The notes beneath the pieces were generated by a model. It was not told the DNA's origin and did not search any database. It was given only the letters and a program-made list of their open reading frames with translations. A stretch of DNA of 64,000 bases from Spirochaetota bacterium (lineage in GTDB: Bacteria; Spirochaetota; UBA4802; JAFGJZ01), in NCBI GenBank assembly GCA_035395685.1, contig DAOPBR010000002.1:84488-148487 (forward strand). The letters run 5' to 3'. The position numbers and the translations under genes are program-made. Shown piece after piece: positions 42 to 59,918 of this stretch (the first letter of the stretch is position 1; each line of letters starts with the position of its first letter).

Positions 42-2342
42 ATGAAAAGACTCAGAATCGGCCTCCAAACTGCGAGACTGGAATACGGGTACGGTGTAAA
101 ATTGTGGCAGGGAGCGCTGATTTCCGCAAAACAAAGAGATGCGGATCTAATAGTATTTCCAGGACGCAATCTGAATTCTCCCCATGGATATGATTATCAG
201 TATAACAGCATCTTCAGTTTGATGAATCTTGAAAATATTGATTCACTCATTCTGATTACAACACTTATCAGCAATTACGTTGACAAAGAAGAGTTAAACA
301 AATTCCGCATGAGATTTTCAGATCTTCCAATTATCAGTGTCGGAGCAAGGATTGAAAATACCCCCAGCATTCTCATAGACAACCGGTCCGGAATAAGAGA
401 TCTTGTAAGACATCAAATTGAAGTTCACGGTGCAAAAAGAATCGCATTTATAAAAGGGCCTGAAAATAATTGGGAAGCCGACGAAAGATATCAGGCATAC
501 AAGTTAGAGTTAGAAGCAAACGGAATTCCTTTTGATGAAAGACTAATTGGCAACGGAGATTTCACTTCTCACAGTGTAGCTCCCGCGATTGAGAAAATAC
601 TAAATTCAAACGATCTTCTTCCTGAAGTATTTATGTTTGCAAACGATGAAATGGCAATACATGGCATGAGGCTTCTCAGAGAAAAAGGCATAGATATTCC
701 CGGAGATACATCTATTACTGGATTTGATGATATACATGAGGCTGCATCGCAGTCTGTTCCGATAACCACAGTATCACAGCCCCTTGCGGAAATGATAGAC
801 CGCGCGGTAAATCTGGCTGTTGAACTTGCGCAGGGAAAGGAAAGCCCTTTTGAAACCATTCTTCCGACACACGCCGTAATCAGATCATCATGCGGATGCA
901 TTGCTCATTGCGTAAATGACGTTGTAAGTATAAGAAAAAACCAATTCATCAAAGATGATAAAGAAGATGTTTGCAGTCAGGTTCTCAAGATTCTTGATAA
1001 ATATCATTTTGAAAACTATTCCGATAAAAACACAAGGCGTACCAATGTCGAACAGGTAATTCGCAAGATTATTTCTTTATCATCCGGCAATGAAAACGAA
1101 ACAGCCGAAGAAAAAGACATTTATTCCTTTTTCAATTTTTTCAGCCGAATACTGATGGAAGAAGCTTCACAAGAACTTCCGCCGGAACATTGGGAGATTC
1201 CGCTTTCAATTCTATCTGAGTTAGTAAATTCCTCACGTGCAACAGATATTATGCTTGATCAGTTCAGATTTCTTCTGCGTGCATGCGCGGTTTTAACCCT
1301 TGATTCCGCGCTCAACATGCGCGTCGCGAATCATTTCGAATTTGAAAGAATAATTGAACGCATTCATGATTTAGAATATGATATCTCTTCTGTAGTCGAT
1401 TTGAATTCTCTCATACAAATTCTCGTAAGAAAGCTTCCAAGCGTGGGAATCAATACATTCATGCTGTCAAAATATAAAACCGATTGGGAACAGAAGCGCG
1501 ATGACGAATGGTCAGAACTCCCGGATCTGAAATGCGTGGCCTCTATGTGCGACAGCAGTGAAATGAATACACTTGAACTTAATGACAGCGGGGCATTAAA
1601 GTGGATTTCATCACCAGGCAGATCCGAAAATGACAGAAGCAGAGCTTTTGTCATTTATCCCCTGTTTTTCCGTGAAAATCATTACGGAATTATTGCCTAC
1701 GAACTTTCGCTTCAAAGCGGATTCATATACGAAAGTCTGACAACCCAGATATCAGGAGTTTTAAAACGTATATTTCTATATGACGCGAAAGATAAAGCCG
1801 AACAGGGGCTCCGTCAGGCTATGCGCGATCTTGAAATTTTTAATGCACAGCTTAGTCAGCTTTCAATAACGGATGAATTGACGGGATTATTCAACAGACG
1901 CGGTTTTATGAAAATGGCAGAACATTCATCCTTTCTCGCGCGCCAAATGGGACAGTCTTCGATGCTGATATTCGCAGATCTCGATAAACTCAAGAAAATC
2001 AACGACACTTACGGACATGATGAAGGCGACTGGGCGATAAAAACAGTTTCCGAAGCTTTGAAGAAGACATTCCGTTCCAATGATGTAGTTGCGCGTCTCG
2101 GCGGAGACGAATTTACAGTTTTCGCGACAAACATGAAAGAAGAACTTCTTCCAAGATCTCAGGCCCGTATAAATGATTTTTTAAAACAAAAATGCGCAGG
2201 AAAACAAAAGGAATATCAACTGACTATAAGCATCGGTCATGTTATATGCCCGGTTAACGAATCGCTAAGTATCGAAGAATATATGCAGATAGCCGACAGC
2301 CGATTGTATGAGCAGAAAAAAAAGAAACATGCTGGAAGCTGA
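42..2342 (+). CDS. Diguanylate cyclase: N-terminal periplasmic-binding-protein-like (LacI/sugar-binding fold) sensor, an unassigned middle region of about 280 aa, and a C-terminal GGDEF domain
   Basis: 766-aa ORF. The C-terminus carries the GGDEF signature (..DKLKKINDTYGHDEGDWAIK..RLGGDEFTVFA..). The N-terminal roughly 300 aa have a PBP type-I-like pattern (IAFIKGPENNWEADERYQAYK, GFDD) with an 'SSCGCI' motif. No signal peptide or TM segment is apparent, so the protein is predicted cytoplasmic. Confidence 0.85.
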   Translation: MKRLRIGLQTARLEYGYGVKLWQGALISAKQRDADLIVFPGRNLNSPHGYDYQYNSIFSLMNLENIDSLILITTLISNYVDKEELNKFRMRFSDLPIISVGARIENTPSILIDNRSGIRDLVRHQIEVHGAKRIAFIKGPENNWEADERYQAYKLELEANGIPFDERLIGNGDFTSHSVAPAIEKILNSNDLLPEVFMFANDEMAIHGMRLLREKGIDIPGDTSITGFDDIHEAASQSVPITTVSQPLAEMIDRAVNLAVELAQGKESPFETILPTHAVIRSSCGCIAHCVNDVVSIRKNQFIKDDKEDVCSQVLKILDKYHFENYSDKNTRRTNVEQVIRKIISLSSGNENETAEEKDIYSFFNFFSRILMEEASQELPPEHWEIPLSILSELVNSSRATDIMLDQFRFLLRACAVLTLDSALNMRVANHFEFERIIERIHDLEYDISSVVDLNSLIQILVRKLPSVGINTFMLSKYKTDWEQKRDDEWSELPDLKCVASMCDSSEMNTLELNDSGALKWISSPGRSENDRSRAFVIYPLFFRENHYGIIAYELSLQSGFIYESLTTQISGVLKRIFLYDAKDKAEQGLRQAMRDLEIFNAQLSQLSITDELTGLFNRRGFMKMAEHSSFLARQMGQSSMLIFADLDKLKKINDTYGHDEGDWAIKTVSEALKKTFRSNDVVARLGGDEFTVFATNMKEELLPRSQARINDFLKQKCAGKQKEYQLTISIGHVICPVNESLSIEEYMQIADSRLYEQKKKKHAGS

Positions 2343-2344
2343 TG

Positions 2345-2700
2345 GGATCAGTGATTGCATGGTGTTATGCAATCACTGGAAGGTGCTACAAGGCGAAGTC
2401 TTATAGAGTACGCTAAACTCGCAGGCAGTCGGAACGATCCCGACAACCGAGACGCTACAAATCCGGCAGGAAGCCGGTTTAAAAGCGTCTCGACAGGAGC
2501 GGCTTCCATGCGGATTTATTTTTGGAATCATTACGTTATAAGTTTTTCTCAGCGAACATCCTATTCGCTTCGATTATAACTTGAAATTAACTTAACACCT
2601 CAAACTCCAAGGTAATGCTTGCGTTTTCCCGCTGTGGTCTTCAACCACCTCGCGGGCTATCTTTCCGCATCCATGCGGAAAGTAAAATCAGCATCGCGGT
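2345..2700. repeat. Solo copy of the hairpin-rich mosaic repeat family (same family as 56.1-59.3 kb)
   Basis: The element begins right after the stop codon of the GGDEF gene. It contains these modules: a perfect hairpin gtgattgcat-ggtgtt-atgcaatcac (2351-2376); 'ctcgcaggcagtcggaacgatcccgacaaccgagacgct'; 'aaaagcgtctcgacag'; and a segment of about 130 nt homologous to the 58343/58803/59176 unit. That unit includes stems agcgaa/ttcgct, cccgctgtgg/ccacctcgcggg (2628-2656) and tttccgca-tcca-tgcggaaa (2662-2681). Confidence 0.7.
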
Positions 2701-30579: not shown

Positions 30580-31668
30580 TTATTTCTTCTGGAATGTCAT
30601 TAAGATATTCCCTTTTTTATCAATAAAGCCCCACTCTGTTTCTGATTCAAATCTGGCCAGACCATCATGAAAAGACCACGCCATGGTGAATTGAAAATCG
30701 ATTACTGTTTTATTATTTTTATCAATAAAGCCGTACTTCCCGTCTTTTTTTGCAAGAGCTAGGTCATCAAAAAACCAGTCGCATGATTCATATTGAAGTC
30801 CAATAACAACATTCCCCATATTATCAATGAAACCGTATTTTCCGTTTTTATTAACCAGGGCAAGCCCTTCGTGGAATATGGAAGCACGTTCATACTGAAA
30901 ATCCACAATAACACGGCCTTCGGTGTTGATATAGCCCCATTTCCCATTGCGGGCCACCGGCGCAAGTCCGCTTGAAAAGCCCATGGCATCATCATATTCC
31001 GTATTAATTATCAGCTTTCCTTCTTTGTTTATAAAACCGTACCTGTTTTTTTCTTTCAGTATTTTGACCATTGCGAGTCCGCCGGAGAACCCGGTTGAAA
31101 AATCAAACTCTGTTTCAAAAACGATTTTTCCTCCCTTGTTTATAAAATCAACACGCCCTTTTCTCCCGTTTCTCCAGACCGGTGCAAACCCTTCATGAAA
31201 ACTGCCTGCTGTGGCGAACTGATAATCGAGGACAACTTTCCCCTGTTTATCTATGTACCCTGCTTGTCCATCTTTTCTAACAGCAGCAAGACCTTCTGAA
31301 AAAGGTTTATAATCATCAAAGGTTTCAGAGGTGATTTGAATGCCCTTGTTGTTTATAAAAAGAAAAACATCGTGTTGTTTTACTTTGTCATACTTCGCTA
31401 CACAGAAGATCCCTTCAGAATAAAAGTCAGAGGGTATGTCTTTATAAACCGGGGCTATAACGATTTTCCCTTTTTTATCAATCAGTCCCCATCCTCTATC
31501 AGTAGCAATCGGTGCGAGCCCACCGGAAAAATTATAGGGTTTAACATACTTGAAAAGATTCTGCCATCGGGTATTGACAGTGGTTGCGGATTTGCTGCTG
31601 GCTGCACTAAACAGGGTTGTAATTAACAAACCTGTCATTGCGGCAGTAAATATTAATCTTCTTTTCAT
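30580..31668 (-). CDS. WG-repeat (KWG-type) beta-propeller-like secreted protein
   Basis: Signal peptide, then about 9 repeats of a G(K/Y)(W/Y)G(F/Y)I(D/N) motif. Confidence 0.75.
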   Translation of the reverse strand: MKRRLIFTAAMTGLLITTLFSAASSKSATTVNTRWQNLFKYVKPYNFSGGLAPIATDRGWGLIDKKGKIVIAPVYKDIPSDFYSEGIFCVAKYDKVKQHDVFLFINNKGIQITSETFDDYKPFSEGLAAVRKDGQAGYIDKQGKVVLDYQFATAGSFHEGFAPVWRNGRKGRVDFINKGGKIVFETEFDFSTGFSGGLAMVKILKEKNRYGFINKEGKLIINTEYDDAMGFSSGLAPVARNGKWGYINTEGRVIVDFQYERASIFHEGLALVNKNGKYGFIDNMGNVVIGLQYESCDWFFDDLALAKKDGKYGFIDKNNKTVIDFQFTMAWSFHDGLARFESETEWGFIDKKGNILMTFQKK

Positions 31669-32112: not shown

Positions 32113-32545
<433 letters not shown>

Positions 32546-32546
32546 T

Positions 32547-33881
32547 TTACTCTATTGCCTGCAAAGAACGTTTTTTTATTATATTGCTGTAATATCTTCC
32601 GCTCTTTTTAATAATTCTTTTTTGAGAATCATAGTCAACTCCTATAATTCCAAATCTTTTATCATATCCGAAAGCCCATTCGAAATTATCCATTAATGAC
32701 CAGACATAATATGCTATCACATTTAATCCTTCTTCATTCATTTTTACAACTGCCTCAAGATGACTTCTTAAATATTCCAGCCTTTCAGTATCTTCAATTT
32801 CACCATTTTTTATTTCATCTTTAAATGCTGAACCATTTTCAGTAATCATTACCGGAATATCAGTATATTTTTCTCTAATCTGTCTGACAATATCAATAAA
32901 ACCTTCAGGAGAAATTTCCCAACCCATAGCAGTCTTCTTTCGGCCCATGTCAACATGCGATCCCTGCAAGAATGCATCTCGGTCATAACGCATGTTAAAA
33001 TCCATGTAGTAATTAACTCCAAGAAAATCTGTTTCTCCATTTATAATTTTGAGATCATCATCCTGAATGTGAGAAAAATCAATATGATTGGACTCGTAAT
33101 AATCAAGCATATCAACCGGATACTGACCTTTAAAAAGAGGTTCTAAAAACCATCGATTGGCAAAACCGTCATATCTTGAAGCTGCGAGCTTATCCGTTTC
33201 TGTTTCCGAATATGGATATGCAGGTCCTAAATTTAGAGTTATTCCAATTTTTGATTTAAGCCCCGTTTGCCGGAATATATTCAAAGCTCTGCCATGAGTC
33301 AGCAAAAGGTGATGCGCGGTTTGAATAGCATCCTGAAGATTTTTATGCCCTGGAGCATGCTGACCATAAAGATGCCCAAGCATACTTATGCAATACGGCT
33401 CATTATGAGTAACCCAGTATTTTACCCTATCTCCGAATTTATTAAATAAAAGTTCTGAATAATCTTCAAAATATCCGCAGATTTCTCTTGAAATCCATCC
33501 GCCCTTCTCATACATCCATTGAGGCAAATCCCAATGATACATAGTCAGCATCGGACTTATTCCATTATCAAGAAGCTTATCTATTAATCTATTATAAAAA
33601 TCAATTCCCTTCTCATTTACATGTCCGGGATGAGGAATAACTCTCGGCCAGGAAACAGAAAATCTGTAAGAATCAAGCCCGATTTCTTTCATCAATGCAA
33701 TATCATTTTCATAAAGATGATAATGGTCGCATGCAACATCTCCATTATCTCCATTAGCAATTTTACCGGGAATATGCGAAAACACATCCCAGATAGAAGA
33801 AGTCTTTCCATCACTATCATGTGCTCCCTCAATCTGATATGCTGCAGTTGCTGCACCAAAAATAAAATCCTTCTCAAACAT
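32547..33881 (-). CDS. GH1 beta-glucosidase
   Basis: Catalytic motifs VTHNEPYC (acid/base Glu) and MITENGSAF (nucleophile Glu). Full-length GH1, 444 aa. Confidence 0.9.
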   Translation of the reverse strand: MFEKDFIFGAATAAYQIEGAHDSDGKTSSIWDVFSHIPGKIANGDNGDVACDHYHLYENDIALMKEIGLDSYRFSVSWPRVIPHPGHVNEKGIDFYNRLIDKLLDNGISPMLTMYHWDLPQWMYEKGGWISREICGYFEDYSELLFNKFGDRVKYWVTHNEPYCISMLGHLYGQHAPGHKNLQDAIQTAHHLLLTHGRALNIFRQTGLKSKIGITLNLGPAYPYSETETDKLAASRYDGFANRWFLEPLFKGQYPVDMLDYYESNHIDFSHIQDDDLKIINGETDFLGVNYYMDFNMRYDRDAFLQGSHVDMGRKKTAMGWEISPEGFIDIVRQIREKYTDIPVMITENGSAFKDEIKNGEIEDTERLEYLRSHLEAVVKMNEEGLNVIAYYVWSLMDNFEWAFGYDKRFGIIGVDYDSQKRIIKKSGRYYSNIIKKRSLQAIE

Positions 33882-52801: not shown

Positions 52802-53875
52802 TCAAGCCATTACGCTTATCTTCTCTTCATCTAAAAACTCTTCCGTTGATAAAGTATGCGATAAAGTAATCTTTTTATTCTTAAACAACTTAGAAATATC
52901 TTTTTCAATTTTTTTTGCTAAATGATATGCCAAATTAACCGGAACAGCATTCCCAATCATTTTATATCCTGCTGTCAAATTATTGTATTTGAACACAAAG
53001 CTGTCTGGAAAAGTTTGTATCCGAGCACATTCACGAATACTTAATCTTCTGTATAAATGCTCTTGTCCTGGAGAAAATATTCTTTTATTCTGTTCAACAA
53101 AAACCATTTTGGGAGCTTGCGGATGTAAAGGAGCATGCCTTCCACCAGCTTGGATGGTAAACGAAACTTCATCCCAAGATCTCACTCTATTGCGAGACAT
53201 GAAAATCGTAGAGAAACCTCCAGTCATATATTCATGATTAGGAATAACGCATTTATTTCCATTCGTTTTTTGGAGAGAAAGCGCCGGTAAAGCATTATCC
53301 TTTAAATCATAAATGACATCTTTAAGAAGAACTTTATCGTGTTCAGTAATTGGTTCTGGAAAATTAAATTCTATTCCCAGATCAGAGCGATAACCAATAA
53401 AGAAAACTCGTTTTCTATCCTGTGGTACTCCATAATCTGATGCATTCAGAAGAGCGAATGATAAATTATAACCGCTTTCAACAAACATTTCTTTAATATT
53501 TTGCAATGCCTTACCATGTGTTGGCAACAACATTCCAGATACATTTTCAGCTAAAAAAAACAATGGTTTTTTATCACGCAAAATTCTGATAAAATCAAAA
53601 AACAATTGTCCTCTTTTATCATTAATTCCTCGAAGAGCGCCTGCTTCACTCCAACTTTGACAAGGTGGACCTCCAATAATACCGATGCATTCAGGAATTT
53701 CATTAGATGAAATTTCCGTTATACTTCTTTTATCTAAAATTGTTTTTTTATGATTAGCTTCAAATGTTTCCCATATTTCTTTGTCATATTCATTAGCCCA
53801 GACAATATTAAATCCAGCTTTTTGGAAACCTAAATCAAGTCCACCCGCTCCTGAAAAAAAAGAAACAATATTCAT
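52802..53875 (-). CDS. DNA (cytosine-5) methyltransferase, M.HaeIII-like (predicted GGCC specificity)
   Basis: Motif [12 protein letters not shown], motif [11 protein letters not shown], motif VI ENV, motif [16 protein letters not shown]-terminal variable region (..[41 protein letters not shown]..) resembles M.HaeIII/M.NgoPII as recalled. GGCC specificity is not verified. Confidence 0.9.
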
Positions 53876-53885
53876 TTATTTCTCC

Positions 53886-54872
53886 CTAAATTGTATTAAC
53901 CGATAAAGTATTCTTAAAAAGAGTATGAGGCGCACTTAGCAAATTGATGTCAAATTTTAATGATGGCTCAATTCTTGAACTGGCATTATGTATTCGAAAA
54001 GAAAGCTCCCAACCTTTATTAAATTTTACAATTATAGTTGTTAAAGAATTCTCTTTAAACTGAACATCTATAATCTGATCAGGTAGCCCGACAATGGGCG
54101 TAACAAATTTTGGAAACTTATCCTTAAAAGGCAAATTTAAAGTACCATGCAGATTAAAAGCTTGAATTTCAATATGATTCGTACTTCTTATAACTTTATA
54201 AAAATCTTTGTTACCAACTAAATATTCTATCATTCTTGAAGCTACTTGTTTTTTATTCATACTATATAATTTCAACAACTCATTTCGGAATGCTTCCAAA
54301 ATCGGCTTATATATTGATTCATGGTAATTGCCTAGCGTATCCCATTTCTGAGTGGATTTACTATCTATCTTAATTTTCTTTAACAAATCAAAAACCGGAG
54401 CTACATTTTCAAAATACTCTGATGAGCAATTAACACCAAGCCATTTATCGCCAAAATCTATATCATTAGATAAACGCGAATGCTTTACTGCGTGATGATT
54501 ATTTTTTGCAGATATGCCAATTTCCCATTTTTGCATTAGACGAATCGCAAGAACATCTCTTACATCACCTTCTTGCCCATGATTATCTGTCAATATTTCA
54601 AGTTGAAGCAAGTCCTTTTTATTTATACCATTTGAAAGACGAGGTTCAATATCAATCATAAAATTGACAGCAAAACTTGCACTTAATAAATAACGACTCT
54701 TTTCATTTTTATCGATACGGCTAAAACATTCTTCGGCAGTTATATACGCGGCGTTCTCAATAACTTGAACAGTAGTTTCTTTGGATAACTTCTCAAAAAA
54801 TTCTTTCAACAAAGCATATTCAAATGCTTTTCCACTTATCATTTGTTTTGAATTTTCAATCATGGATAACAC
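53886..54872 (-). CDS. Putative type II restriction endonuclease partnered with the m5C methyltransferase (HaeIII-type suspected)
   Basis: 328-aa ORF 10 bp upstream of the methyltransferase gene on the same strand. Size and context fit R.HaeIII-like enzymes. No motif was independently recognised. Confidence 0.5.
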   Translation of the reverse strand: MLSMIENSKQMISGKAFEYALLKEFFEKLSKETTVQVIENAAYITAEECFSRIDKNEKSRYLLSASFAVNFMIDIEPRLSNGINKKDLLQLEILTDNHGQEGDVRDVLAIRLMQKWEIGISAKNNHHAVKHSRLSNDIDFGDKWLGVNCSSEYFENVAPVFDLLKKIKIDSKSTQKWDTLGNYHESIYKPILEAFRNELLKLYSMNKKQVASRMIEYLVGNKDFYKVIRSTNHIEIQAFNLHGTLNLPFKDKFPKFVTPIVGLPDQIIDVQFKENSLTTIIVKFNKGWELSFRIHNASSRIEPSLKFDINLLSAPHTLFKNTLSVNTI

Positions 54873-55116
54873 CTATAATTTGTTGAGAGTCAAATCCTCT
54901 TAACTTATTACAAACCATCGCTATCATCGTCAATACTAAAACCATGAACAAAGAACATGTTCGTCATAGTAATTTATAAACAAGAAAATTCTCACCAGTA
55001 ACCTCTCAGCGCCAAATTACTCGAATACTTTACAAAGGATATAACGTATTTTAGAAATTAATTATCAATATAACTTTTTTTTTGCAATCCGTTGAAAGCG
55101 GTCTGAAAATCAAGGC

Positions 55117-55166
55117 GAAAAAGGTGGACATCCCGTCAGGCTGTTTTACATTATTGAGGAGAGGGA
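55117..55166 (+). repeat. Right, degenerate copy of the flaB-terminator-derived direct repeat (R-M cassette boundary)
   Basis: gaaaaaggtggacatcccgtcaggctgttttacattattgaggagaggg matches 52714-52760 at about 70% identity. The stem complementarity is lost in this copy. Confidence 0.5.
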
Positions 55167-55260
55167 AATTAGAACAGGGGTCAGTCCGAGATAGTTATTT
55201 CCTCAAAAAAAGAAAGCTTCTATATTGAATCATTTCGTATTATATAAGATGGATAACATT

Positions 55261-55773
55261 TTAATTATCCTTTTCTGGAATAATCGAAGCTAAATCATCT
55301 TCAACATCAATTCCATATAAAGTTGCAATTTGAGCAACCATGATACCAAAATTACCTCTTAATTCTCCTAACGCAGAAGCAAAAGTCCAACTTGCCCAAT
55401 GACCCCAACTCCTTGCATTATCCATGAATCTATTATCTTCAATATTCATTTTATCAAGAAATTTCCTACAGGATATACGCATAGCTTTAACTGGATCATA
55501 CAGTTTTGATTTATTAGACAAACTTTGCAATTCCGTAGTTAAAAATTTACGAATTTCAATAATGGATTGAACACAGTGGTTGGGCACTTCCATTTCGCTC
55601 GGACTATATAAAACCCTGCGATCTTCGAGAAAACGAATAATCCGTTTTGCAATATTACATTCTGCCTCTGATGGATTCCAAGAAATTCCAAATACAGAAC
55701 AATTAATTCCGGTTATTCTTTCTCTGATTTCTGAAAATTTCATAATCATTCCTAAATCAAAATTTCTATCCAT
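55261..55773 (-). CDS. Hypothetical protein, orphan 170-aa ORF in the accessory island
   Basis: Clean ORF with its own 330-bp AT-rich upstream region. No recognisable motif (it lacks the Vsr, HTH and PIN signatures that were checked). Confidence 0.5.
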   Translation of the reverse strand: MDRNFDLGMIMKFSEIRERITGINCSVFGISWNPSEAECNIAKRIIRFLEDRRVLYSPSEMEVPNHCVQSIIEIRKFLTTELQSLSNKSKLYDPVKAMRISCRKFLDKMNIEDNRFMDNARSWGHWASWTFASALGELRGNFGIMVAQIATLYGIDVEDDLASIIPEKDN

Positions 55774-56099
55774 TTATCCTAAACATAGATGATACTTCTG
55801 TCACATACTCCACCAAAAATCTAATAATACACGAAGCTAAACCTATAAAATGTTTCAATCTCGCTTCTTTTGTTTTTTCATTTTAAAGTTGCGAACTGTT
55901 CAGCTTTAACCGATGAACACCCTAAGATCTTCCACTCAATGATTATTATGATCTTTATGCATAATGTTTTCATGAATGTCAAATCCAAAATAATCCAACT
56001 GTCACAGAAAAAATTACGCGTATGCTGAGCGCAGCGAATAAACGCGTAATGATATTATAAAATGAATGATTTCTAAAATCAAGAAAGTGCGCTAAGCAC

Positions 56100-56337
56100 T
56101 TCAAATAAAGACGGATGATAGCAATAACACCAAAACCGTCCGACGCAGTCGGACACCAAATAAGCGCAGATTATCGCAGTCATTTCGAAGAAATGCGCGA
56201 TAGTTCTGTCGCGACAAGCCCCGCGCAGCGGTGCCCTTTTCTTTCGCCGAATTTCTTTTGGGCACGCAAAAGAAATCGGCAAACGGATTTAAAAGGTGCG
56301 AAGCACCTTTTGTGTCTCGCATGACACCATGCGAAAC
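56100..56337. repeat. GC-rich, hairpin-dense mosaic element abutting the mazF stop codon
   Basis: Hairpins aaaaggtgc-gaa-gcacctttt (56291-56311), tcgcatg-acacc-catgcga (56317-56334, 3 nt from the mazF stop), gccgaatttctttt...aaaagaaatcggc, and gtccgac-gca-gtcggac (56137-56153). These modules are shared with the element at 57105-57488. Confidence 0.7.
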
Positions 56338-56661
56338 TTATTCTACCAACATTTCTTTAATAACTGCTTTGATCTTCGTGATCGTTTTCTTGTCAAGTTT
56401 ACCTAATTTTTTAATTATTCTTACTTTGTCTATCGTTCTAATCTGATCTATAACTATCCATCCATCCTTCAAATTAAAATTTGTCTTAACACGGGATGGA
56501 TAGTCATGTCCTTTTGTTGTCATTGGCGCAATGATTATTGTTGAAATATTATGATTCATTTCATTCGGCGAAATTACGGTACATGGCCGGCTTTTTTTAA
56601 TTTCATGACCGACTGTTGGGTCAAGATTTACCAACACAACATCATATTGATCTATTACCAT
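56338..56661 (-). CDS. mazF: MazF/PemK-family endoribonuclease toxin
   Basis: ..YDVVLVNLDPTVGHEIKKSRPCTVISPNEMN..STIIIAPMTT.. typical PemK/MazF fold. 7-bp overlap with the upstream antitoxin gene. Confidence 0.85.
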   Translation of the reverse strand: MVIDQYDVVLVNLDPTVGHEIKKSRPCTVISPNEMNHNISTIIIAPMTTKGHDYPSRVKTNFNLKDGWIVIDQIRTIDKVRIIKKLGKLDKKTITKIKAVIKEMLVE

Positions 56662-56924
56662 TCGAAATCTTCCTGCTCAATATCCAATGAATCATCAATA
56701 AGCAAAGAGTCGTGTTTATTTTCAGACATTTCTTTGAACTTTTTCGACCATTCTCTTCTGGGTGTTTCTTTTACAGGAATAATAATGATTTTCTGATTTT
56801 CAATCTTCATTTCAACTTCTGTTCCGATATGACATTGTGATAGAACTGAAGAAGGTATTCGTATCCCCTTTGAGTTTCCTATTTGTACAATATTGACTTT
56901 CATAATGAATAACCTATCGATCAT
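56655..56924 (-). CDS. mazE: MazE/AbrB-type (SpoVT/AbrB fold) antitoxin
   Basis: MKVNIVQIGNSKGIRIPSSVL.. swapped-hairpin AbrB N-terminus with an acidic C-tail. Confidence 0.8.
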   Translation of the reverse strand: MIDRLFIMKVNIVQIGNSKGIRIPSSVLSQCHIGTEVEMKIENQKIIIIPVKETPRREWSKKFKEMSENKHDSLLIDDSLDIEQEDFEW

Positions 56925-57104
56925 TTAACGTAATCACAATATAGTTACATGTCAACTGTTTAATTTCTTCAAATCAACTCTTCCCCTAACCTCATTCCGC
57001 CGCATTCGAACAAACCAAAATCAATGCAAGATTAAATCGCCATAAAATATACCGCTTCATAACGATTGAAATCTGCATGCTTAGTGATTACAGAAATTTC
57101 AAAT

Positions 57105-57488
57105 CTAAAAACAAACCGCCTGGCGTGGGGAAAAGATGAATGAAAACAAAATCATTAAAACGTCCGACGCAGTCGGACACTAAGGCGGTAGGAGAACCGC
57201 CACCGAGGCGCTTCACAAGCAAACAGGAAGTTTGCACAAAGCGCCTCGCAACGGGCGACCGCAGCATCCGGCAAAGCCGGTGCGAGGAATTCGCCCGACA
57301 AAAGCCAGGAGTGGGATCTCAAAGGGATGAGGAGCGGCGACTGAGCTCCTCGTCCCTTTGAATATTCTCGCATGATCCATGCGAAACCGGATTACAAAGG
57401 CGAAGCCTTTGACAACAAGTCCGGTGACCGGACAAATCGGATTTAAAAGGTGCTCTGCACCTTTTATGTATCACATGACACCATGTAA
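57105..57488. repeat. GC-rich, hairpin-dense mosaic element abutting the vapC stop codon
   Basis: aaaaggtgc-tct-gcacctttt (57445-57465); tcgcatg-atc-catgcga; caaaggc-gaa-gcctttg; gtccgg-tga-ccggac; a long stem aagggatgaggagc...gctcctcgtccctt; gaggcgctt...aagcgcctc (57205-57247) enclosing gcaaac..gtttgc; gtccgac-gca-gtcggac (57162-57178); and the aaaacaaaccgccWggYgtgg module (57107-57134). Confidence 0.7.
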
Positions 57489-57887
57489 TTAAACCCAGTT
57501 CTCCATTCTCAATTTCTTAACCTTTGAAAATTCCTTCAAATTATTAGAAACCAAAATTAAATCTAACGATATTGCCTGTGCCGCTAATAAATAATCCATC
57601 GCTCCGATCGGTTGACCGGATTTTTCCAAGTCCGATCTGATAATCCCATATTCTTTTGCCGCTTTAAAATCATAATCAATCAATTTAAACGGCAACAGGA
57701 ATTCAATTAATGCAATTCGGCTGTTATCAGGATTTTTACTTTTATTGATGCCGTATTCGAGTTCCGAAACCGTAATTGAAGATATGGCAATATCGTCTAT
57801 TTCATAATTCGACAACCGCTGTATAACAGAAACGGGTCTTTTATTGATAATATAAATACATATGTTTGTATCAAGAAGATACTTCAT
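57489..57887 (-). CDS. vapC: VapC PIN-domain ribonuclease toxin
   Basis: MKYLLDTNICIY.. with the conserved PIN acidic residues (D6, E42-like SSITVSELEYG, D-containing C-terminal region). Confidence 0.85.
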   Translation of the reverse strand: MKYLLDTNICIYIINKRPVSVIQRLSNYEIDDIAISSITVSELEYGINKSKNPDNSRIALIEFLLPFKLIDYDFKAAKEYGIIRSDLEKSGQPIGAMDYLLAAQAISLDLILVSNNLKEFSKVKKLRMENWV

Positions 57888-58129
57888 TCGATAATTTCTC
57901 TCGCTTCAATGGCCGGCTGAATCCGTTCAGACATAAAATTTTCAGGAAACTTCTCCAGACTTTTTGAAAAATTATCCCAAACTTTATCTTTCGGTATAAG
58001 AATAACCATATCATCAATCCGTTTAACAAATACAGATTCGGTTAAAAATCTATATTCCTTTGGCAATCTTACGGCCTGACTCCTTCCGGTTGTAAATATT
58101 TTTGCTGCGTCCATATAATTATCCCCCAT
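57884..58129 (-). CDS. vapB: VapB (VagC/AbrB-type) antitoxin
   Basis: ..TTGRSQAVRLPKEYRF.. SpoVT/AbrB motif. 4-bp overlap with vapC. Confidence 0.8.
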   Translation of the reverse strand: MGDNYMDAAKIFTTGRSQAVRLPKEYRFLTESVFVKRIDDMVILIPKDKVWDNFSKSLEKFPENFMSERIQPAIEAREIIE

Positions 58130-58283
58130 TCATCTGATAGATATCATGATACATATCTTTTGACAAAGTATCAAGTCTTTTTTTAACATTGAATTAAGTG
58201 ATGAGAATGGATTGTTGAAATGTTAGGCGGTAATTGCAGAAAAACAATTCGTCATCATCAGATGATTTATTGAATGCCGAATC

Positions 58284-59320
58284 AAAAACAAACCGCCAGG
58301 TGTGGAAAAAAAATACGTGCGCCCTCACCTCGGCTCCTGTAAAATTTACTCACAAATTCAGTGTCCCATTGCTTTATCTCCGCGAACTTCCTGTTCGCTC
58401 CGAATGCAACTTTAAATCAATTTAACACCTATATCTCCGAGGTAACGCTTGCGTTCTCCTGCTGCGGACTTCGTCCGCCTCGCAGGCAGTCGGAACGATC
58501 CCGACAATCGAGACGCTTCCCTCGCAAACTGCTCGACTCTTTTTGTGCCGTCCTGGCACAGAGTCTCGTTGCCATCATCGTGATGGCTCAAAGTTTGCAC
58601 AAAAGCGTCTCGACAGTTTCCGCCTCCGTGCGTTAGAGCATTTATGCTTGAATACAATTGTTGCTTTTTCTCAACGGTCATCCTTGACCGTTTCGATTAT
58701 ATCAATAATGCCAATTATCACCTCAAACTATGCGGTAACGCTTGCGGTCTCCCGCTATGGACTTCGTCCATAGCGGGCAATGTTTCCGCCTCCGTGCGGA
58801 TTTACTCACAAATTCAGTATACCATTGCTTTATCTCCGCGAACTTCCTGTTCGCTCCGGATACAACATCAAATTGATTTATCACCTCAAACTATGCGGTA
58901 ACGCTTGCGTTCTCCTGCTGCGGACTTCGTCCATCTCGCAGGCAGTCGGAACGATCCCGACAATCGAGACGCTTCCCTCGCAAACAGGAGGTTTGCACAA
59001 AAGCGTCTCGACAGTTTCTACTCCTCGGCGCGTTTGCCGTCCTGGCCGCGCCTCATTGCCGGAAGGAATCCGGCAACAAATCGCAACTTGTCGTCACGGA
59101 GGACGACACAAAGCGATTTGCAATGCACATCCTGTGCAAGCGCCTGCGGATTTGCTAATGACTTCAATCAAATGATTCGTTATCTCCGCGAACTTCCTGT
59201 TCGCTCCGAATGTAACTTTAAATCAATTTAACACCTATATCTCCGAGGTAACGCTTGCGTTCTCCTGCTGCGGACTCCGTCCGCCTCGCAGGCAATGTTT
59301 CCGCCTCCGTGCGGAAACTG
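58284..59320. repeat. ORF-less tandem array of the mosaic hairpin repeat family: about 2.3 copies of a 460-bp composite unit plus partial modules
   Basis: A unit of about 145 nt starts at 58343, 58803 and (5'-truncated) 59176. Each copy is followed by modules agtcggaacgatcccgacaatcgagacgcttccctcgcaaac (58487, 58947), gtttgcacaaaagcgtctcgacagtttc (58589, 58994) and gtttccgc-ctccgt-gcggaaac (58781, 59297-59318). A unique 60-nt insert occupies 58529-58588. A leader module aaaacaaaccgccaggtgtgg lies at 58284-58310. The ORFs the caller reports inside the array are artefacts of GC-rich repeats. Confidence 0.75.
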
Positions 59321-59387
59321 ATTGACAATATCTGCCTATAATTTGTGCTTATCCCAAATACTTCATAATTTCCGGAGGAACCGAACC

Positions 59388-59918
59388 ATGCCCCAAATAG
59401 GAATAATTCTCGGCAGCGATTCCGATCTCCCTAAAATCAGACAGTGCCCTGAAATTCTCGATAAATTCGGTGTCAGTTTTGAGATCATCTTCTCATCTGC
59501 TCACCGCACACCAGAACAGACCAAAGAATGGGTTGAAAGCGCGCGTTCACGCGGCATCAAAGTAATCATCGCCGCTGCAGGCGGCGCGGCGCATCTTCCT
59601 GGTGTTTGCGCGGCTCACACCACCCTTCCGATTGTCGGAATTCCGATTGAATCTCCGGTATCGGGCGGTCTCGATTCCATTCTCTCAATAATTCAGATGC
59701 CGTCCGGAATTCCGGTAGCTGCGATGCCGGCAGGTAAAGCGGGTGGAGCAAACTCGGCGCTTTTCGCTTTATCAATTCTTTCGGTTTCCGACTCTTCGAT
59801 TGCCGAAAAACTCGCGGCATACCGCGAAGAAATGAAAACTGAAATCAAAAAGAAAAATGATCTTTTAAATGAAAAAGGCTACAAAGAATATATTGATTCA
59901 CTCGGAGTTAAAAAATGA
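59388..59918 (+). CDS. purE: N5-carboxyaminoimidazole ribonucleotide mutase
   Basis: [34 protein letters not shown].. canonical PurE. The start is reassigned to ATG 59388, preceded by GGAGGA. Confidence 0.9.

Follow-up and report, generated by a model that had tools for sequence, protein, structure and literature searches.

The Toxin-Antitoxin Locus

The window, i.e., the whole stretch of 64,000 nucleotides that was analyzed, belongs to a Spirochaetota MAG of anaerobic-digester and activated-sludge origin, and the same locus is present in GCA_035367765.1 (contig DAOSKI010000005.1), GCA_035377685.1 and several JGI samples. Two toxin-antitoxin (TA) gene pairs lie next to each other on its minus strand. 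The first consists of mazF (56338-56661, stop codon at 56338-56340), which encodes a PemK-type toxin of 107 aa (gene call and Pfam PemK), and mazE (56655-56924), which encodes an AbrB/MazE-type antitoxin (gene call and Pfam MazE_antitoxin). The second consists of vapC (57489-57887, stop codon at 57489-57491), whose product is a PIN toxin of 132 aa (gene call and Pfam PIN), and the antitoxin gene vapB (57884-58129, gene call). The likely mazEF promoter, TTGACA-N17-TACGTT, is located at 56925-56960 on the minus strand and overlaps the imperfect palindrome ACATGTAACTATATTGTGATTACGT, which is a candidate MazE operator.

Two other features of the window deserve mention. Positions 52802-55773, between a flagellin gene and the TA pair, have a low GC content (30-33%) and contain genes for a HaeIII-type restriction enzyme and a C5 methylase together with a DUF6650 gene; part of this region is replaced in other strains. 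At 32123-32450 on the minus strand, 328 nt match bacterial 23S rRNA (model positions 2045-2912, 112 bits); the match sits in an 879-nt gap between the ORFs 30580-31668 and 32547-33881 with no surrounding rRNA operon.

Each toxin gene is directly followed, on the same minus strand, by a copy of a hairpin-rich element. The copy downstream of mazF (E2, 55935-56337) has a covariance-model match at 56207-56335 (142 bits), and its whole block is common to up to 28 other locus groups. The copy downstream of vapC (E1, 57131-57489) has a match of 57 bits at 57384-57489. The two blocks end exactly at the mazF and vapC stops. Both element regions fold far below shuffled sequence on either strand (z of -5 to -12).

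The preliminary description of this DNA reported a hairpin, tcgcatg/catgcga, at 56317-56334, and this hairpin is confirmed, with a perfect 7-bp stem. As gene-strand RNA, it extends to a 10-bp stem, P1 (GUUUCGCAUG-GUGU-CAUGCGAGAC, 56314-56337; folding and covariation), with a dG of -15 kcal/mol, and its first paired base is the nucleotide right after the UAA of mazF, i.e., a gap of 0 nt. The closeness of the hairpin to both toxin stops also holds; P1 of the vapC copy (57470-57489; pattern and folding; dG -7.3 kcal/mol) takes the last base of the stop codon into its stem. The vapC coordinates given originally, 57445-57480, cover the second hairpin and only part of this first one. The similarity noted between the two elements is 86% over 51 nt in our alignment (56281-56331 versus 57435-57485, repeat family D5), and it is beyond chance. 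The module patterns occur at these two places only within the 64-kb window, with a chance expectation of 0.02-0.24 matches, well under one, and the two elements are copies of one repeat family.

The remaining parts of E2, all read on the minus strand, are as follows. P2, AAAAGGUGC-UUC-GCACCUUUU, is followed by the linker AAAUCCG (56291-56311; pattern and folding), and P3 is a stem of about 14 bp, GCCGAUUUCUUUUG...CAAAAGAAAUUCGGC (56246-56280; folding, alignment and covariation). The P5 module (56164-56215; folding and alignment) is one of three alternative versions in the family. Next comes a terminator-like terminal hairpin, GUCCGAC-UGC-GUCGGAC with a U-rich tail (56127-56155; pattern, terminator scoring, covariation and folding). 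Finally, a promoter module recognized by its motif (55951-55990) has TTGACA at 55977-55982, a 17-nt spacer and CATAAA at 55954-55959, and it faces the DUF6650 gene at 55261-55773.

E1 has the same beginning and end as E2, and the interiors of the two are unlike each other. Its P2, AAAAGGUGC-nnn-GCACCUUUU, is again followed by AAAUCCG (57444-57466; pattern and folding). The interior modules (57319-57433, from repeat and hairpin analysis) are of C type (57419-57433), of B type (57395-57411), a second P1 (57368-57384) and a long B type (57319-57361). The terminal hairpin (57161-57179; pattern and folding) is followed by UUUUAAU. The sequence GTCCGACTGCGTCGGAC plus a T-run is common to the terminal hairpins of both elements (56137-56155 and 57161-57179), and the hairpin at 56137-56155 with GTTTTGGTGT was scored as terminator-like; the U-runs of both window copies are short and interrupted. 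Two degenerate copies of the promoter module, recognized as repeat family D6 and by motif, are also present on the minus strand, one about 185 nt upstream of mazE (57107-57137) and one about 155 nt upstream of vapB (58284-58314).

The second P1 of E1 at 57368-57384 is a variant, GCAUGGAUCAUGC, that also occurs in several other loci; it holds AUGGAU, which fits the AYGGAY motif of TwoAYGGAY RNA, and it has no Rfam match. TwoAYGGAY RNA has been tied to downstream REP arrays in Pseudomonas by a preprint (10.64898/2026.09.22.753630).

Between purE and vapB, on the minus strand, lies a third set of repeats, the S0 array (58330-59335; repeat analysis). Its long repeat units, three to four in number, draw on other hairpin modules of the family's repertoire, and further repeat blocks of the window were found within 58370-59319 and at 2418-2681. 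The S0 unit modules are GTTTCCGCACGGAGGCGGAAAC, CGAGACGCTT...AAGCGTCTCG and GCGAACAGGAAGTTCGC, and these also occur at window 2340-2690 and in L019, about 800 to 300 nt upstream of the search seed. S0-type modules precede the run of A, B and C hairpins in L019 and come after mazF in L053. A CRISPR-like array was considered for S0 and rejected; the hairpin GTTTCCGC...GCGGAAAC comes back at uneven intervals of 163-456 nt within long repeated units, and no regular array was detected by TRF. Spurious reading frames of up to 131 aa are present inside the array, and several assemblies break at it; for example, L090-L093 begin beside purE.

Dispersal of the Element

Copies from other places were gathered with one exact seed, the 25-base pattern AAAAGGTGCNNNGCACCTTTTAAATCCG, which spans P2 and its linker. 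The pattern was found at nine loci in three Spirochaetota MAGs, six of them on different contigs of one MAG, and at 58 loci in metagenomes from digesters or sludge. Together with the window and strain variants (L001-L016), the matches form 30 locus groups, and the collected loci amount to about 0.8 Mb from many genomes. The sample is biased by this procedure, and because P2 is the search seed its invariance is by construction. The blocks common to unrelated places are 230-990 nt long and are all intergenic, and the hairpin modules within them are 15-43 nt. The P1-P2 pair is mostly preceded by more hairpins and not by a gene end. Annotated plasmids and phages gave no match to the element.

Architecture and Polarity

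Each copy is a polar string, which in the window is read in the direction of the TA genes. The 5' part varies and is made up of short G+C-rich hairpins that belong to three types, A (GCATGGnnnCATGC), B (AAAGG...CCTTT) and C (GTCCGGTCACCGGAC or CCGAGTGTCGG), separated by the conserved T-rich linkers AAATCCGGTTT and ACTTGTTGT. This run is followed by a conserved core, P1, P2, P3 (a 14-bp stem) and P4, then by one of three alternative P5 modules and, optionally, by hairpins whose loops read CUUCCUG or CCUCCUG. The copy is closed by the terminal hairpin and GTTTTAGGTGTTTTT. Many copies add further hairpins and a sigma-70-like promoter module of consensus quality, TTTTGGrTTTGACA-N17-(T/C)AT(T/A)AA-GATTTTAATGATCAT, which faces the next gene.

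With a covariance model of the core, the forward direction reaches about 150 bits and the reverse echo about 28 bits, and so the element is strongly polar. The core is also supported by covariation. Among 25 distinct copies, 94% of the cells are paired, and nine pairs and 33 cells have double changes; none of 500 shuffles scored as high, and structures slid by one to three columns pair only 35-56%. In the terminal hairpin (27 copies), six of the eight pairs have double changes, e.g., CCGAC/GUCGG, CAGCC/GGCUG, CGCGC/GCGCG and CUGUC/GACAG. Since the copies of this hairpin were picked as hairpins in a conserved context, independent evidence comes from how diverse their stems are and not from the percentage paired.

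For the 5' arm of P3, AUUUCUUUUG, two pairing partners are available, its own 3' arm and a near-duplicate, GAAAGAAAAGG, just downstream (alignment A2; window 56225-56280). RNAalifold pairs it with the downstream copy, and this pairing was rejected; the covariation backs the local P3 hairpin. The gene-direction strand, which is also the T-rich strand, folds lower in 25 of 28 blocks. Naming it the functional strand from folding energy was likewise rejected, since T-richness explains the difference and the single non-Watson-Crick positions in long stems are G.T in nine cases and A.C in eight.

Two observations concern individual modules. The hairpins whose stems are swapped between copies keep CUUCCUG or CCUCCUG loops, which are like an anti-Shine-Dalgarno sequence (window 57204-57248; L023, L027 and L080), and the loops of the S0 units have the complement, AGGAAG; the kept loops might mark a binding site. 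A separate module, CCCTCTCCC...GGGAGAGGGCGAGCCGAAGGCTGGGTGAGGGCA, is often found between the terminal hairpin and the promoter module (L017, L018, L021, L041, L049, L060 and L074; window about 58330-58345).

The fixed module order and the conserved loops make the element look more RNA-like than classical REPs, which speaks against a REP-like reading. A rival explanation is a multi-copy family of autonomous structured non-coding RNAs, transcribed on their own, the loops of which would bind a protein or another RNA. Both order and polarity are fixed, the loops and internal loops are conserved while the stems vary (e.g., the CUUCCUG/CCUCCUG loops on swapped stems), covariation is present, G.U pairs are kept at helix ends on the forward strand, and a terminator-like hairpin ends the element. 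However, the 5' ends are variable, any module type may come first, and unsystematic inspection noted no conserved upstream promoter. Moreover, many copies directly abut the upstream ORF, and there is no excess of G.T over A.C. No Rfam family matched at gathering scores, and a permissive search (E up to 5) of 55700-59450 returned only two chance-level miRNA matches with E of about 1-2. An autonomous RNA family is therefore, in our view, quite unlikely.

Relation to Neighboring Genes

The genes that flank the copies include those for a DEAD-box helicase, a DinG-like helicase, an Fe-hydrogenase-like protein, glutamate synthase and IlvD, as well as rplT and accessory genes. By crude ORF calls, on which these counts rest, the upstream gene is on the same strand as the element at 11 places and on the opposite strand at 15; the downstream gene is on the same strand at 17 places and on the opposite strand at six. 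Six of the 11 co-oriented upstream ORFs end 8 nt or less from the element, namely the two window cases and those of L061, L074, L054 and L025; in L025, the stop codon is inside the loop of a B hairpin. Elsewhere an ordinary terminator precedes the element, for example after rplT. Such tight abutment to stop codons, which the preliminary description took as characteristic of cassette boundaries or of 3'-UTR structures, is already documented for REP families (PMC3733652).

The promoter module has 19 distinct sequence matches in the collected loci, and most of them have an ORF of at least 80 aa that starts 147-400 nt downstream on the same strand. Outside the window, the genes downstream of the module include those for HD-CE, a caspase, a WapI-like immunity protein, DUF5655 and ParE.

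The element was originally described from the two toxin genes, and it could have been a TA-specific 3' device that tunes the stability or termination of the toxin-antitoxin transcripts. Both window toxins carry it 0-1 nt from the stop, and a ParE toxin gene is near one further copy. However, the same motif occurs at about 30 places, e.g., after rplT and beside helicase, hydrogenase, glutamate synthase and ilvD genes, and most of these places are not beside TA genes. The ParE gene is 112 nt from its element and on the opposite strand. The expectation that further copies of the TA modules would carry the same 3' element did not hold either; mazF in another strain (L053) precedes a different module string. 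Because the elements adjoin both housekeeping and accessory genes, in both orientations, the link to TA systems is rejected, and a TA-specific role is very improbable. The junctions are those of a lineage-wide mosaic repeat that fills intergenic space.

A role as a 3'-UTR structure that stabilizes or terminates the TA transcript had also been proposed. For the mazF and vapC elements such a 3'-end role is plausible because a terminator-like hairpin closes each copy. A sense 3'-UTR role is not general, however, because about half of the copies have an upstream gene that runs the other way.

Variation Among Strains

The element between vapC and mazE differs between strains with 100% identical flanks; a whole stem is swapped with the loop kept (GCAAAC-UUCCU-GUUUGC versus CCGAC-UUCCU-GUCGG), loops vary, and about 100 nt of extra hairpins are inserted. 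In general, the changes between strains are confined to the element, which is rapidly reshuffled by replacement, gain or loss of whole modules while the flanks remain identical. After mazF, three strains have TAA-GTTTC and then three different module strings. The gene past the promoter module differs as well; it is DUF6650 together with a HaeIII-type restriction-modification (R-M) system in the window, DUF2971 in L024 and a gene with a weak SieB-like match in L053. Look-up of the exact PurE protein, made in search of a purE-flagellin locus that lacks the TA genes, gave nothing but the same arrangement or contigs that break off at the S0 array.

A second locus behaves in the same way. Four strains (L028, L035, L051 and L059) have a common upstream flank and element, and these are followed by four gene sets, i.e., PIN with an HsdM-like protein, another methylase, DUF5655 with a PglX-like methylase, and lipoproteins with an HsdR-like N-terminus. 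This looks like a defense-island hot spot that is bounded by the element. Over the whole comparison, 82 of 102 alignment break clusters, which are redundant across strains, are in or within 80 nt of the repeat blocks, and the blocks make up 11.7% of the collected sequence.

The preliminary description had suggested that the junctions are cassette boundaries. In the integron sense, the repeats would be attC sites in an integrase-less cluster (CALIN). TA cassettes are typical of chromosomal integrons, Treponema species carry integrons, and in the window the repeats begin at stop codons of co-oriented genes. However, no RYYYAAC...GTTRRRY pair 50-150 nt apart was found on either strand of either window element, and the element consists of many short hairpins in a row where attC has a single long imperfect palindrome. 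None of the genes called up to about 10 kb away in either direction encodes an integrase, and copies occur singly between housekeeping genes. The integron version of the boundary idea thus falls away, and attC sites are the least probable of the explanations considered, with hardly any chance of being correct. The looser version survives; gene-content breaks between strains coincide with the elements in two loci.

In this looser form, the composites would be the substrates of a dedicated recombination system, neither integron nor transposon, that swaps defense, R-M and TA units, and the TAA|GTTTC... junction would be a recombination scar. The units might be exchanged homologously through the linkers or by a putative hairpin-recognizing enzyme, and the element, as a junction module, would give the incoming unit an upstream terminator and a promoter. 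Several of the patterns above agree with this. Each TA operon has a promoter-module remnant upstream of it and P1 at its stop, bracketing it in one orientation, the gene past the promoter module after mazF varies behind one constant TAA-GTTTC, the second locus has four alternative R-M/defense sets behind one flank and element, and the genes downstream elsewhere include HD-CE, caspase, WapI and ParE. However, no recombinase domain turned up in the genes called for about 10 kb to each side, and homologous recombination between dispersed repeats gives the same pattern. Other accessory genes of the island were checked for the element at their stops and none has it. In addition, many elements adjoin housekeeping genes, and the variation was seen at the two loci examined. 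We consider a gene-exchange system of this kind unlikely.

Comparison with Known Repeat Systems

The closest analogues of the element are the REP/BIME repeats and the NIME arrays of Neisseria. Like REPs and BIMEs, the spirochaete modules are short G+C-rich extragenic palindromes that are highly repeated and form mosaics with conserved linkers, and strains differ in how many tandem units a locus has, as has been described for BIMEs (PMC3333891). Both are often a few bases from the upstream stop codon or overlap it; for most REPs the distance to the 3' end of an ORF is below 20 bp, and some REPs provide the stop codon (PMC3733652). The roles proposed for REPs and BIMEs include mRNA 3' stabilization and termination (PMC3733652, PMC3333891, PMC3184786).

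There are also differences. Of the tetranucleotides conserved at the foot of REP palindromes, GTAG occurs zero times in either window copy; CGTC is read on the opposite strand of the terminal hairpin in 21 of 27 copies and TGTC in four, although the stem lacks the A/T first positions described for CGTC REPs (PMC3733652). The spirochaete units are all head-to-tail with one polarity and their linkers are asymmetric and T-rich, whereas REP and iREP form inverted pairs, head-to-head or tail-to-tail. The spirochaete family also has many more module types, which follow a fixed overall order, and it adds a long conserved core, a terminator-like hairpin at the end and a promoter module.

NIME arrays are likewise long intergenic mosaics of many repeat families that keep syntenic positions while their composition and number of units vary, and they have been tied to variation or exchange of the flanking genes (PMC1797815). 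They are dynamic even though their positions are kept, and according to the same paper such arrays were not seen outside of Neisseria (PMC1797815). The dRS3 sequence (ATTCCCN8GGGAAT) was sought in the window and 93 loci with zero matches. Apart from the different phylum, the spirochaete units are the hairpins themselves, whereas NIME units are spacers bounded by one 20-bp inverted repeat, and the variable flanking genes are defense, R-M and TA genes in the spirochaete as opposed to surface antigens in Neisseria.

Individual parts of the element resemble other interspersed repeats that supply such parts to their neighbors, i.e., SPRITE (Rho-independent-terminator-like), Correia (promoter) and BOX (modular A-B-C) elements (PMC3184786). 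There is no sequence relation to any of them; the spirochaete element lacks terminal inverted repeats, and it joins terminator-like and promoter-like modules in one polar composite. With attC sites, it has in common structured repeats near the stops of co-oriented and often TA genes and a structure conserved beyond sequence, but it differs in lacking core sites, in its architecture, in having no integrase nearby and in the single dispersed copies.

Interpretation

Taken together, both elements probably belong to a lineage-specific family of uncultured Spirochaetota, made up of interspersed intergenic repeats that are modular and rich in palindromes, and functionally comparable to REP/BIME and NIME arrays. 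The modules would be shuffled when paralogous copies, of which there are many, undergo short-patch gene conversion or slippage by way of their common linkers. Where the upstream operon runs in the same direction as the copy, as in mazEF and vapBC, the hairpin string would be transcribed as a 3' UTR and might block 3'-5' exonucleases. The terminal hairpin would end transcription of mazEF and vapBC, and the promoter module would presumably restart transcription for the next gene. The terminator, stabilizer and promoter roles are drawn from consensus-level features. With a terminator and a promoter module that restarts transcription, the element would be expected to insulate neighboring units of a defense island.

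A stable hairpin 0-1 nt past the stop codon may also lower translation of the toxin. Liang, Rudd and Deutscher in 2015 reportedly found that E. coli REPs within 15 nt of a stop codon lower translation via ribosome stalling and tmRNA. If the hairpins at the two toxin genes act by analogy with these REPs, the hairpin at a toxin stop codon would offer a testable way of setting the toxin-to-antitoxin ratio.

Conclusions

Detailed descriptions of shuffling intergenic arrays come mainly from enterobacteria (BIMEs) and Neisseria (NIMEs). The spirochaete system would be an independent example of arrays that keep their position and shuffle their units, and one that is built from quite different units. 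A practical effect is that the arrays break metagenome assemblies. Finally, arrays with terminator-like and promoter-like modules at the edges of variable defense and TA islands could show how repeat arrays shape the turnover of such islands and insulate horizontally acquired genes.
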